Position numbers and translations under genes: made by a program. Source: Eledone cirrhosa (lineage: Eukaryota). From it: a stretch of 64,000 nucleotides of DNA. This document shows positions 103 to 13,616 of this stretch, one piece after another. The stretch spans positions 49,166,001-49,230,000 of the forward strand of contig OZ024746.1 in the NCBI GenBank assembly GCA_964016885.1. Direction: 5' to 3'. The notes under the pieces are model-generated. The model was given only the letters and a program-made list of their open reading frames with translations. It ran no database searches and had not been told where the DNA came from. Position 1 is the stretch's first letter; the number at the start of each line of letters is the position of its first letter.

Positions 103-683
103 ATATCTCACTGTTGTAACTACATATATATATATACATATATGTGTGTGTGTGTGCGTGTGTGTGCGTGTGTGTGTGTGTGTAGTTAATAAATGAAACA
201 AACAAAACACATATATTTACCTGATTGTGATCTCGTGTTACGAACGAAAACGAATGAGATCTCGATATAAACAGATGGTTGATATATATGTTTTCATGTA
301 TGGTATTAGTAATACACTCAAACCACTGCAAGTGTCATATACATTGTTAACAGAATTACGTCCATTATCAAAATTGATGGTTAGACTTGATAAAATATAA
401 GTAAATGTTCTGAAAATGGAGAATAAGTTCTGTTTGCCAATAATGTCAATGACACCGGAAGATGTTTCAGGGTATTACAAATATTATGTGTTAGAATATA
501 TATATATATTATTAAAATAACAGATTAAAGTTTAAGCAAAGAATCGCTGCTTTGGATTAAACTTCAAATTTATTATTATTACTATATATATATATATATA
601 TATATATATATATATATATATATATATATAGATATATAGATAGATAGATAGATAGATAGATAGATAGATAGATAGATAGATAG

Positions 684-3600
684 ATTTCTTTATTAGCCAC
701 AGGGGCACAAAAGAAGGGGACAAATACAAAGGGGGAAGTTTCCATACAATAAAAACGTGTAAAATGTTATCACAAATGGAATTTAAAAATTAGTCGATTT
801 TCCCCAATAGAGGGAGACAGTTTATATGGGTAACACATACCCCCGAAAAAAAATGTGAAACCCTCATCTCCAGGAGTACGAAGAGCTTGTACTCCTTTCC
901 TCTCCTCCTCCTTTTCCTCAACCTACAGGCTGATATAGAGAGAAGGCCCATTTACTCGGGCCATTCTCGCCACTTTCACCCACCTTTCATAAAACTTGCT
1001 GGGGTACAGCACCTCTCTCTCCATCCTGATTCTTCTTCCAAAGTGGTATTTGAAAAAAAGAATCAGTTGTTGGCCGGAGAGAAAGGTGTCTGACCTCAGT
1101 CCTTTCAACCTTGTCCACCATACAACCTCTTTCGCCATAGCTATCACACAAAGGAAAACCGCCTCTCCTTCGTTTTTGAAGGAGGGTGGCGGTTTGATCA
1201 TGATAATGGACTCGGTGGTCAACTGGATTGGTCCCACCCGCGACAATAGTCGTTCTACATAGCCCCACAGGTCAGTGACGCCCGGGCAGTGTATGAATGC
1301 GTGCGCGACGGTTTCTTCGTCTCGCACGCACCTCGGACAGATCTTTTTTGCAGGGTCCCTGCCCGGGCGCCCATGTCTGTAGAGCTTGTCTCGAACTGGT
1401 AGAGCTCCTCGGTAGCACTGCCAGGCCAGGGACTTTTGGAAGTTGTCCATCGGTCCCGGGCGGAAGGTCCTACCGAACAGACTGGCCAGTTCATCTTCCT
1501 CTACGCCTAGAGTTTCACCGAGCGCGTCGTCGCACTTGCTGCGGACCAACCCTCTATAGAATGACGAAGTGGAGTCTCCACTGATCGCCGGGTCCGCCTG
1601 CCAGAGGGCTGTGAGCGGCTGAGCACATTTGATGTGCCAGTCGCCCAGTTTCCTCGGTCTTTGCTTGACCCAGGACTGCAGCTCGGTCAGCGAGACGAGT
1701 CGTGGGAAGGCTCGCCTCACGAACGGGGCCCACACCGGTTGTCCGGTGAGGAATACGTAGAGATGCCGCAGCCTGAGCGCGTGTTTGCGCATCGTCAACC
1801 ACGGCATCCCCAGCACCTTAGAAGGGTGTTGGCAGCAGATGGATCTTCTCACCAAAGGAGCCCGCCTCTTCCAAAAGAATCGGAAGAGCGCGCGCTCCAT
1901 TTTGGCGAGCGTTTTGGCTGGACAAGGCACGACGGTCAAGCGGTAGTAGATGGCGGACGCTATAAAAGTGTTCGCCACCTCCGCTCGACCTTTCAAGGAT
2001 AGTTTACACTCGGCCCACTTCTGGGTGAGTGCAAACACCTTGGCCGTCACTTCGTTCCAGTTCTTCTCCACCTGGAGGTCCGGACCAAACCAGACACCGA
2101 GCAGCTTTACCGGTCCTTCCGTCCAGCGTCCGACGACGCCATCGGAAGGCATCGGTCTGCCTCTCCACGATCCGAGTTTCAAACCGATGTACTTGTCCCG
2201 GTTCAGCTTCGCTCCTGTGAGACTTTCGTATTCCTTTAGTAAGGTGCCGACTTCCTCTATTTGCGAGGTGCTCGACACCGTTACTGTCACGTCGTCGGCG
2301 TAGGCCGACGCCGCTTTCCGCAGTCCCGGTTCCAGAGGGATGCCCTGCAATAGCTCCAGCTTCCGCAGTAGTGGCTCGAGAGTCAGTACGTACAGAAGGG
2401 AGGAGAGAGGGCATCCCTGTCGAATGGATCGCGTAATATGGAACGGCTCCGAGAGGTAGCCGTTCACCTTGACCCTTGAGCAGATGTTGCTGTTGTGCAT
2501 TGCAGCAATCCAGACCCTGAACACGGGTCCGAAGCCTGCCGCCTCGAGCACCGCATCCAGGTAACGATGGTCAACCCTATCGAAAGCCTTAGACTGATCC
2601 AAGTTGATCAGGGCCCCACCGAAGCCGGGTTTACACCCTACCCTCTCTATGATGTATCGCATGAGGTGGAGGTTGTCGTGTATGGACCTGGTCGGGATTG
2701 CGCATGTCTGCGCTTCTCCCACCAGGTTCTCGACGACAAACGCCAGCCTCTTTGCCAACATCTTGGCCAAAATCTGTAACTCTGTGTTTAGCAGAGTTAT
2801 GGGCCGGAAGTTGCCTATGTCATCCCCCTTATTCTCGTCCTTCCTGATTAGTGTGACCACGTCCCCGGTTACAGAACTGGGAATTCTCCCGTTCTGTTGC
2901 CAGTTGCAGTAGACCGCTTCCAGGAGACCGGAGAATAAGTCCGGCATTGCTACGTAAAATTCGTAGGGTAGACCGTCGAGACCTGGAGATTTGCGTTTGA
3001 CGCATTGGCTCAGCGCGTCCCCTATCTCAGTGGCTGAAATCGGCTTTTCGCAGAACTTTGCCTCGCTGTCCGAGAGTCGCGGTAGGCCGTCGAGGTATGG
3101 ACCGAAATCCATAGCCTCTCCCGGCGCGCCGCTCCCCCCGAACAGCCGAGCGAAGTGCCGCTGAAAAGCCGCACACATCTGCTTCGGCTCACGTTCACGC
3201 GTCCGTTTTGGTCCCTCAAAGAGCGAATCGTGGACTTGTTGCCACTTTTTGCCTCCGTCACTCGGGCCCAGCTAACAGCTTTGGCTCCCTCGTTTCCCAG
3301 AGCACGTATTTTGCTTCTGACAACGCAGCCCTCGTGCTTTGCGTCGAAGAACTGATCCAAGGCCGTTCTCGTTGCTAGCACGCTGGCTACGTTGCCACTT
3401 CTAATTGCCTCTTCTACTTTATCTACCAGTTCCTTCTCGGTTCTATTTCTATCTAACGCTAATTCTTTACTAAAAACTATCGAGTCTAATCTAACTGCCC
3501 TCTTGAGAGAGTACCACCATCTGTTGTTGACAATGGCCCCTGTCAAGTGCTGTTTAACTAAAGTGCTAATCCGTCTACTGTAGGCTTTGCTTGTCGGTAA

Positions 3601-4254
3601 CGACAAGTTCAGCTTCCAGTAGCCGGGTCCTTGTCTATGGGTTCTATCAAGGTTGGCCATGCAGGTCACTAGTTTGTGATCTGAATAGGCAACCATGAAC
3701 ATTTGTGGACAGCTTAACATGTCCCTATCCTTATTTCTAACTAGAACCCTATCTAGGTACGATCTAGATGTTCCGCTACGATTACTCCACGTCCACATTG
3801 GCGCAGTCGGAAAATCTAGTCGATATCTATCGGCCAGGTCAAATCGGTCGATTAACTGTTTGAGGCTGTTACACCCCCCTTTATCGGGACATGCTCCCAC
3901 ATAGTCCCAACGTGCATCTAGGATTCCATTCCAGTCCCCCACTAAAAGCAAGGAGCGGGACGTTCCCAGAAAAGTCTCTAGACGTTTGAAGAAGTCTGGT
4001 CATGGGGGCCAGCTGTCGCTCGCCGTGGATCCTGGACTCGCAAATGGCTACCACATCCATACTGTGCGACCTGGGGTCGTTTAAGAGTTTGCCCTGTTTC
4101 CAGGGCATCCCCAGGCCGCGTACATTCACACATCCGACTCTTATATTGGCCATGTTGGTGCTGAAAAGTTAAAAGAGGAAAAGAGATCACTCACTCTTCG
4201 CCTCCTGGGGACCAGGCCGCACGATTTCCATGGGGGTGTTGGAGGGGTTGTCTG
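684..4254 (-). mobile_element. Tx1/L1-clade non-LTR retrotransposon copy A, 5'-truncated at the end of ORF1, with an internal deletion in APE
   Basis: APE motifs (GCVNVRGL, GDWN, SYLDR, SDH) and RT motifs (KSPGLDG, FRPITLLN, DQSKAFD, QGCPLS, YADD), plus a C-terminal CX2C-X7-HX3-C. The 3' end reads AATAAAGAAA then (TCTA)n, and (GATA)n lies on both sides. Confidence 0.95.
923..4153 (-). pseudogene. ORF2 (APE-RT) of copy A, broken into 3881-4153, 3022-3951 and 923-3178
   Basis: The three ORF pieces are collinear with ORF2 of copies C and E. There is a frameshift near 3190 and a deletion near 4004. Confidence 0.93.
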
Positions 4255-11759: not shown

Positions 11760-12416
11760 AATTTCTTTAATAGCCACAAGGGCACAAAAGAAGGGGACAA
11801 ATACAAATGCGGAGTTTACATACAGGTATATGAAAATAAAACTATTAATAAAATAACAAATAACAATTGAAATCCCCAATAGGGAGGAGTCGTTACACAG
11901 GGGTTGTACACACACCGAAAAAATGTACAACCCTCATCTCCAGGAGCACCAAGAGTGAGTACTCCCTTCCTCTCTTCCTCTTTTTCCTCAACCTACAGGC
12001 TTATATAGAGAGAAGGCCCAACCACTCGGGCCATCTTTGCCACATTCACCCACCTTTTATAAAATTTGCTGGTGTACAGCACCTCTCTCTCCATCCTGAT
12101 TCTTCTTCCAAAATGATATTTGAAAAAACGAATCAGTTGCTCGCCGGAGAGAAAGGTGTCTGACCTCAGCCCTTTTAACCTCGTCCACCATATAACCTCT
12201 TTCACCATAGCCATAACACATAGGAAAACCGCCTCTCCCTCGTTTTTGAAGGAGGGTGGCGGTTTGATCATGACAATGGGCTGGGTGGTCAACTGGATTG
12301 GTCCCACCCGCGACAATAGTCATTCTACATAGCGCCACAGGTCGGTAACGCCAGGGCAGTGTACAAATGCGTGCGCGACGGTTTCCTCGTCGCGCACGCA
12401 TCTCGGACAGATCTTT
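11760..12416 (-). mobile_element. Tx1-like copy D, short 5'-truncated 3' end
   Basis: Contains the ORF2 C-terminus (11993-12316) and the 3' UTR. (GATA)n lies at 11661-11759 and 12417-12490. Confidence 0.93.
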
Positions 12417-13616
12417 TAGATAGATAGATAGATAGATAGATAGATAGATAGATAGATAGATAGATAGATAGATAGATAGATAGATAGATAGGTATGTACA
12501 TACATAGGTAAATAAATAGATAGATAGTGTAAGAGTCGTAGTATATTACTGATACTTGTATAATGTAATACATTGTTCTATGTTATATCATTAGTTCTGC
12601 ATCTATAGTTATATTGTTGGTTCATCATGTTATATTGTTAAATGGTAAAATGCCACACAACCCTGTTATTCTGGCATCTGTGTAACATAAACATTATTTA
12701 TATCTCTTAACATTTTATAGTGTGAAAGTAATTACTTGAAGTAAATTGTTCAATTTGGATCTAAAGTAAGGGGAAGCGTCATCGAATATTTCATAATAAA
12801 TATACTGAATTCTTTGGTTTCCCTTATGAAATTTAATTAAAATATATATTAAATCCATAAAGACGGACATTATATGTACTACAAAGAAATATTTATTCAC
12901 TATTATTTAGGAGATTGAAAGAAGTGTGAGGGTAAGAAAGAAGCACATTAAAAACATGGATCGTGGGAATACTTTTAACGAAGTAGAAGAAAGCGTTGAG
13001 AGAGAGAGATATAAAAGTAGAGAGACAAAGAGAGAGGGAGAGAGAAGTAGTGAAGAAGAGGAACATAATAAATACGTGTAGTAATAATAATAACAACAGT
13101 AACAATAAAAACAATAATAAAATTAACAAAAGAATATTTATCTTTACGAGTAGCTGGATTCAAATGTGTCGCCGCAAACTAATACTATATTCTATTGATT
13201 ATATTGTGTTGTTCAATGGACCCAATTTAAAATTATATTTACCATGCATATAATAAAATGTTCTGGATTTCTTTCGCGTCATTTCTGAAACATAAATGAA
13301 ATATATATTGTAAATCTATAAAACATACAGCCTAAAACGTATTTCAAAGAAATATTAATTTCACTTCACTTATGGAACTCTATATACGTGACTGAAATTA
13401 ATTGCTTAATGAAAGTATTAGCAAACCAAAAAATTATTACATGAAATTTCTATTGCGTCACTGATTATACTTAAACTAAAACATAAAATACTTTTGCTTT
13501 TTTAATATTTTACTGGATTCAATCAAATGACTGCAGCTAGATTAGTGTACCGGCTTGGATTAGTTGATTATATTAACCACAGTACTTATCGTTCACTCTT
13601 TGTTGAACTGTTAAGT

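Follow-up and report, generated by a model that had tools for sequence, protein, structure and literature searches.

Is a simple repeat that stands at both ends of a retrotransposon the site that the element selected, or a tail that it brought along? The question is raised by a 64,000-nucleotide stretch of Eledone cirrhosa DNA (contig OZ024746.1, positions 49,166,001 to 49,230,000; hereafter ‘the window’), in which five copies of an element lacking long terminal repeats (non-LTR), here lettered A to E, are each bounded by (GATA)n. We think that the repeat is probably the target, and that A–E are copies of an L1-group (Tx1-like) lineage with two open reading frames (ORFs) whose preferred sites of insertion are (TCTA)n/(TAGA)n microsatellites. 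The argument is built from the junctions, from the divergence among the copies and from sister families in which similar arrays occupy other sites.

Copies A–E and their repeat junctions

The window contains eight runs of at least three GATA/TATC units, seven of which adjoin copies A–E and one of which (46851-46926) is free. A preliminary description of this DNA had placed A–D in tandem and in one orientation, separated by GATA runs, with E on the opposite strand, and refined coordinates bear this out (repeat runs and 3′ flanks are given on the sense strand of the element; RT, reverse transcriptase; APE, apurinic/apyrimidinic endonuclease):

630-684, minus strand: 3′ flank of copy A, (TCTA)12 TATA TCTA, then (TA)n
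685-4254, minus strand: copy A, its 5′ truncation ~110 bp upstream of where ORF2 starts; ~200 bp are deleted inside the endonuclease
923-3271, minus strand: open frame of copy A, 782 codons, matching RVT_1 and zf-RVT
4255-4300, minus strand: spacer between B and A, TATA (TCTA)10 TC
4301-5868, minus strand: copy B, 1.57 kb, 5′-truncated, with 98.3% identity to A across 1543 aligned bases; 23 bp are duplicated internally at 4917-4964
5869-5900, minus strand: spacer between C and B, TATA (TCTA)5 TATA TCTA, putative upstream copy of B's target-site duplication
5901-11661, minus strand: copy C, full-length, 5.76 kb, with several frameshifts and stops
9851-10948, minus strand: frame with ORF1 of copy C, carrying a CX2CX4HX4C knuckle
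~9511 to 6120, minus strand: ORF2 of copy C, APE-RT-zinc finger
11662-11761, minus strand: spacer between D and C, TTTA (TCTA)24
11762-12416, minus strand: copy D, 0.66 kb, 5′-truncated, 85% identical to A
12417-12490, minus strand: 5′ flank of D, (TCTA)18 bordered on its far side by non-element DNA, a run that a neighbour's tail cannot explain
16252-16345, plus strand: 5′ flank of E, ~22 TCTA units following a (TC)n run, no element upstream
~16346-22079, plus strand: copy E, full-length, 5.73 kb, opposite in strand to A–D, its 5′ base uncertain by a few nucleotides
17419-17811, plus strand: frame with the ORF1 knuckle of copy E
~18401-21825, plus strand: ORF2 of copy E, frameshifted
22080-22101, plus strand: 3′ flank of E, TTTA (TCTA)3 TTTA TC, then a TC-rich repeat
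44801-45153, plus strand: copy F, a decayed relative with ~270 bp of ORF2 and the family 3′-end motif (45132-45150)
46848-46926: (GATA)19 run without an insertion, possibly an empty target

On the element's sense strand, (TCTA)n stands at 10 of the 10 junctions of A–E, on both strands of the window, as had been claimed for every copy. The 3′ ends read AATAAAGAAA in A, B and C, ATTAAAGAAA in D and AATAAAAAGAAA in E, with a consensus A(A/T)TAAA(AA)GAAA followed by a first repeat unit of TCTA (A), TATA (B, C) or TTTA (D, E), and all five junctions share one common phase. Inspection of these five junctions found no poly(A), in agreement with the preliminary description, although its picture of ends that run straight into (TCTA)n simplifies a little, the first unit being a variant in four of the five copies. 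The 3′-end motif occurs six times in the window at no more than one mismatch, each occurrence assigned to one of the copies A–F, and a seventh match has three mismatches, with 0.45 expected by chance. The sixth motif, that of copy F, has no TCTA run and had been overlooked.

Target and tail are not equally well separated at all of these junctions. The repeat run at the 5′ end of A is at once the 3′ flank of B, and the same holds for B with C and for C with D, so that these runs cannot tell one from the other; of the three 5′ truncations cited in the preliminary description, all of them real, those of A and B therefore do not serve as evidence for a target over a tail. The case is argued independently only by the 5′ runs of D and E and by a predicted duplication around B. 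The 5′ ends of D and E abut 18 and ~22 TCTA units, respectively, upstream of which there is no 3′ end of an element, and in E the 5′ run is far longer than the 3′ run, which consists of just three units. LINEs (long interspersed elements) of the CR1/L2/RTE type confine their simple repeat to the 3′ end, and the long 5′ runs at D and E do not fit that type. With A removed, both sides of B read TATA (TCTA)n TATA TCTA, and the internal variant TCTA-TATA-TC occurs only twice among the 115 TCTA units of the eight runs, both times where a target duplication predicts it; B appears, from this arrangement, to be flanked by a target duplication of ~32 bp carrying two variant units.

The copies in the array are not duplicates of one another. 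Nucleotide identity to A is 98.3% for B, 85% for D, 74–78% for C and 76–81% for E, with 74–80% between C and E, 72% between C and D and 75% between D and E. Counted against the open frame of copy A at codon positions 1/2/3, copy C differs by 0.157/0.113/0.311, copy E by 0.138/0.085/0.268 and copy D by 0.078/0.028/0.162; copy B differs at 8/2/6 of ~435 sites each. Four subfamilies (A/B, C, D and E) have thus diverged as coding lineages where at least three had been claimed to share the site, and because the differences are concentrated at third codon positions, we read the array as separate insertions rather than as one copy that was duplicated and decayed. Subfamily divergence and junctions together support the earlier claim of repeated, independent insertion into (TCTA)n in a single orientation. 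The 5′ truncation points also differ, lying just upstream of ORF2 in A, past the RT core in B and near the C-terminal zinc finger in D, and no copy in the window is intact, C and E being full-length yet broken by frameshifts or stops.

Two observations on these copies stand apart. The 5′ untranslated region and ORF1 of C (9774-11661) and E (16346-18134) give no nucleotide-level alignment, though their ORF2s are 80% identical, which may reflect either fast divergence or replacement of the 5′ end. An identical 10-mer lies shortly upstream of the 5′ runs of D (12526-12535, minus strand) and E (16146-16155, plus strand) and nowhere else in the window; it is possibly due to chance and is given no weight here.

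How often would an element with a merely generic liking for microsatellites be found in such sites? Outside the elements, the window has 61 perfect microsatellite runs of at least 20 bp (30 AT, 7 AGAT, 6 AC, 6 AG, 3 AAG and 9 others), and when runs split by insertions are collapsed, the GATA class makes up 3 of 57 pre-insertion loci. Under generic preference, the GATA class in the right orientation would be hit with p ~0.026 per insertion (0.040 by base share), which is the fair figure for the second locus, since it was the first that supplied the motif. Four further independent insertions would give p ~5e-7 to 3e-6, values that exaggerate the significance: every insertion restores the target, and the window had been selected beforehand. 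Five of the six relatives lie in TCTA, at two independent loci in this window alone; a published criterion for a target-specific family is a common sequence type in more than 20% of the flanks of its genomic copies (PMC4494074, cited here, like the other papers below, from the portions covered).

Coding capacity and sister array families

The ORF2 frames in the window match Exo_endo_phos, RVT_1 and zf-RVT, and the layout is that of the L1 group, with ORF1 followed by an ORF2 containing an N-terminal APE, the RT and a C-terminal CCHC-type zinc finger; intact homologues bear out this order of domains. The pieces of A, C and E retain APE catalytic motifs, which align with those of intact relatives. 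For one homologue (P0006, 44% to copy A), the best solved relative is L1 ORF2p (E 9e-69), against 5e-16 or weaker for R2 proteins, in a narrow comparison whose PDB list held no full ORF2 match from CR1, RTE or R1; these similarities support membership of the L1 group. Tx1-clade elements have an ORF1 of the RNA-binding-domain and CCHC-knuckle type, unlike the ORF1p of vertebrate L1. The CX2CX4HX4C knuckle is found in C and E, and a profile of 12 sister ORF1s matches C at E 1e-14 and E at 1e-5, as well as a fish ZCCHC3-like ORF1 (P0242) at E 6e-6 overall, though weakly per domain. Membership of the Tx1 clade is likely, judging by the ORF1 type, the behaviour of the elements and automated ‘L1-Tx1’ labels in octopus annotations.

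The best named matches are from Argonauta hians (62%), Acanthosepion pharaonis (50%) and Apostichopus (40%). An RT tree of 40 rows, hand-picked from 264 proteins and 43 loci with copy A alone representing the window and no labelled Tx1 or vertebrate L1 reference among the rows, groups copy A with the Argonauta protein and two further proteins (support 100/99), as sister (100/99) to a clade of a cuttlefish protein and the array families described below. The window family is placed among fish, frog, lancelet and sea-cucumber elements, the deeper fork among which is not resolved by this tree.

The 43 loci come from a scan of genome contigs, and 38 of them (L001-L036, L041, L043) lie on 16 contigs of CAXXMW01, a bacterial metagenome-assembled genome (MAG) record. 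These are eukaryote-type LINEs, evidently in co-assembled animal DNA that contaminates a GTDB representative. The remaining five (L037-L040, L042) are distant L1-group LINE fragments of 30–35% identity from bacterial MAG records other than this one, where they too are probably contaminants from a host, and two of them end in poly(A). No further copy of the GATA family with flanks was found among the 43 loci. On CAXXMW01 contigs of up to 94 kb, Tx1-like LINEs belonging to several subfamilies and for the most part intact stand in tandem arrays, with 41–44% protein identity to copy A and units of 6.4–6.9 kb joined head to tail. They resemble A–E in their two-ORF layout, hairpin-AATAAA 3′ end, lack of poly(A) and head-to-tail arrays, and differ in that their ORF2s (~1150 aa) are mostly open, where none is intact in the window, and in that each array has its own spacer of 16–19 bp of non-repeat DNA right after AATAAA in place of (TCTA)n.

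These sister families bear directly on the question of tails. Neither poly(A) nor TCTA occurs at any of 49 distinct sister 3′ junctions (those caught by a pattern search, which may have missed others), which argues that the lineage does not add repeat tails, and three TCTA units occur in none of the 43 fetched loci. In L011 the spacer is also present at the 5′ boundary of the array, beside non-element DNA, and in L023 and L028 truncated units are placed after spacers of another type; the arrangement suggests that the spacers are target duplications. Since the sister arrays stand at non-repeat sites, the habit of building arrays is not peculiar to GATA sites, so that this habit and the missing tail appear as traits of the lineage and GATA as the target of the window's branch. 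The CAXXMW01 arrays are possibly an undescribed set of site-specific, array-forming families.

RNA genes were also considered as a target and found no support: Rfam returned nothing at gathering level in 11 of the 38 sister loci, and in positions 1-24000 of the window its matches were all below threshold and lay mostly in AT repeats; nor did tRNAs, ARAGORN returning none in 16 of the 43 loci. The non-element flank at the 5′ boundary of the L011 array (L011:280-1017) bears on its reverse strand what we take to be decayed coding sequence of another LINE, and this sister family may target another transposon. Separately, the 3′ ends of a SINE-like (short interspersed element-like) repeat in the window (23480-23500, 32620-32660) have a C-rich stretch and GGCCT(T/C)G(T/C)GC in common with sister LINE 3′ ends (L021:8935-8965, L001:4905-4935), a resemblance hinting that the sister families could be partner LINEs of the window's SINE.

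A proposed insertion mechanism and rival explanations

Target-primed reverse transcription is established for elements of this class. In the scheme that we propose, the APE domain of ORF2 would nick the purine-rich strand, either at TAGA/TAGA or a single base along at TAGAT/AGA, the site being suggested by the shared phase of the 3′ junctions, and the freed 3′ end would prime reverse transcription from an RNA ending in ...AATAAAGAAA. Cleavage of the second strand some tens of bases off would duplicate a piece of the repeat, such that each insertion would leave same-strand target on both sides, later ones would arrive adjacent and co-oriented, and a head-to-tail array would form, with slippage afterwards altering spacer lengths. 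From the duplication around B, the likely order is C first, then B at the 3′ junction of C, then A within B's downstream duplicate. The GATA-specific APE that the preliminary description named as the cause is presumed only. A hairpin loop of the endonuclease contributes to target choice in L1 and Tx1L (PMC1950540), and this loop is nine residues long in copies A, C and E, and 11 long in the sister element L021.

Several points weigh against this reading. One sister protein (P0005) also has a nine-residue loop, so that loop length alone proves nothing and is a lead only. The second-locus probability of 0.026–0.040 is modest, there are only two independent loci, and the crowding of the five copies, which occupy 27% of the window and lie entirely within its first 22 kb, could mark a locally permissive region. 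For the duplication around B, slippage has to be invoked to bring 5 units into line with 10–12, none is readable at the junctions of E, where it was looked for, and a shared 3′ phase is predicted equally well by a tail. The (GATA)19 run at 46848 has received no insertion. The 3′ hairpin TGCC-N5-GG(C/T) ahead of the poly(A) signal, found in five of six predicted folds (not that of E), is not established, because its z-scores are only −0.3 to −1.8. Copy F tells against strict specificity: it has no TCTA run at either end, and the 5′ portion of a SINE-like repeat (~44685-44800) runs directly into its ORF2 fragment; its divergence is 24–50% by codon position, and an old or chimeric origin is possible, the chimera perhaps having arisen by template switching.

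The strongest competitor, which we nevertheless regard as unlikely, holds that the endonuclease is not specific for GATA and that an RNA ending in (UCUA)n, by its own tail or by read-through, anneals to nicked GATA and seeds the insertion. The common phase of all five 3′ junctions and their lack of poly(A) agree with it, as do the 5′ runs of A, B and C that double as neighbours' flanks, and read-through is plausible with a poly(A) signal at the very end of the element. It does not account for the 5′ runs of D and E, upstream of which no element lies, or for the three units at the 3′ end of E against ~22 at its 5′ end, and the sister families add no tail. A pure tail model therefore fails; a mixed model, in which homology of a read-through RNA assists a pre-existing (TCTA)n target, is possible.

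A more diffuse explanation would make GATA incidental, with a loose liking for AT-rich or pyrimidine/purine-biased microsatellites and a local pile-up in a tolerant region. The crowding noted above speaks for it, as do the compound (TC)n/(TCTA)n site of E, the (TA)n abutting A and the location of F outside TCTA, yet none of the 30 (AT)n or 6 (AG)n runs among the 61 perfect runs directly flanks a copy, and the orientation relative to the repeat is the same at both loci; we consider it improbable, more so than the seeding of insertions by a repeat tail. Least probable is an array produced by tandem duplication or unequal exchange of a single insertion. A and B are adjacent and nearly identical, and unequal exchange does act on sister arrays (in L028 identical truncated units repeat with a period of 3136 bp), but A/B, C and D are only 72–85% identical with a third-position bias, no two truncation points agree and the 5′ end of B joins repeat rather than homologous sequence, so that such an origin is largely refuted for C, D and E. 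Insertion into a preferred (TCTA)n target is accordingly the explanation that we retain.

Neighbouring elements and known site-specific families

Other retroelements share the window. Two long ORFs on the plus strand (50062-52560 and 55538-57649; 832 and 703 codons, with YVDD/YRDD motifs) have GIY-YIG-like C-termini by eye, with only a weak Pfam match, to RVT_1, in the first, and are presumably Penelope-like; the second is flanked by 823-bp direct repeats (54496-55318 and 58030-58851) that are 98.4% identical. At 61967-64000 (plus strand), a non-LTR element starts just after an (ATA)17 run, with a 510-codon ORF at 62229 and RT homology reaching the end of the window; by its motifs we take it to resemble Dong/R4. 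It may be a second microsatellite-specific family, TAA repeats being the reported target of Dong elements (PMC3812793).

In automated annotations, Octopus vulgaris has 80 L1-Tx1 families (56.3 Mb), 13 of them recently active (PMC13282606), and L1-Tx1 belongs to the repeat set shared by coleoids (PMC8967140). The A–E family is probably among such libraries. The portions of PMC13282606 covered describe no insertion preference for the O. vulgaris families, and the word ‘target’ is absent from its main text. No GATA-specific element was found in the literature searched, a set with few subscription papers and without Fig. 3 and the supplements of PMC4494074, Repbase or Dfam. The strategy, microsatellite-specific insertion by a Tx1 element, is known, and the target motif is apparently unreported.

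A wider reading is possible, though we lean somewhat against it: that A–E belong to the first APE lineage specific for GATA/(TCTA)n, with at least four subfamilies, in an undescribed coleoid clade of array-building Tx1-like elements without poly(A), whose members switch targets (microsatellite versus short non-repeat sites) while remodelling the endonuclease hairpin loop, and that the ~30 bp of repeat duplicated per insertion multiplies the host's GATA microsatellites. Under the main reading, a tetranucleotide target and an invertebrate host would already join the short list of microsatellite-specific Tx1 families. How such families find their targets was called ‘not well understood’ in a 2013 review (PMC3812793), and close relatives with different targets and open frames would form a natural series in which to map what determines the specificity of the APE, a matter of relevance to tools for site-directed insertion. 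In practice, some GATA markers of this genome may have flanks in common or contain insertions of several kilobases. The general view of how such elements work is unchanged.

Targets already on record for comparable elements include ACAY, AC, TC, TTC and TAA in the list of one review (PMC3812793) and (TG)n for Togen (PMC4640811). Crocodilian Tx1 families (Tx1-1_Crp and relatives) prefer (TTCC)n/(TTTC)n (PMC4494074) and Tx1-1_ACar telomeric repeats (PMC10088271); as is proposed for A–E, they target repeats, and they differ in motif and host lineage. Head-to-tail copies with duplicated target between them, arising from repeated insertion at a single site, are known for R1 and SINEU-3 (PMC5932611, PMC4494074), but R1 is of another clade and targets ribosomal DNA, whereas the A–D array has microsatellite spacers and mixes three subfamilies. 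A close parallel is with Kibi and Koshi, Tx1-clade elements of teleost fish that target (TC)n and (TTC)n, respectively (PMC4494074, PMC3812793), and that are, like A–E, APE-type Tx1 or Tx1-like elements residing in microsatellites. Here all ten junctions are TCTA, and no copy is directly flanked by any of the window's (TTC)n/(AAG)n or pure (TC)n runs; A–E differ from Kibi and Koshi in target and in host, a cephalopod rather than a teleost.

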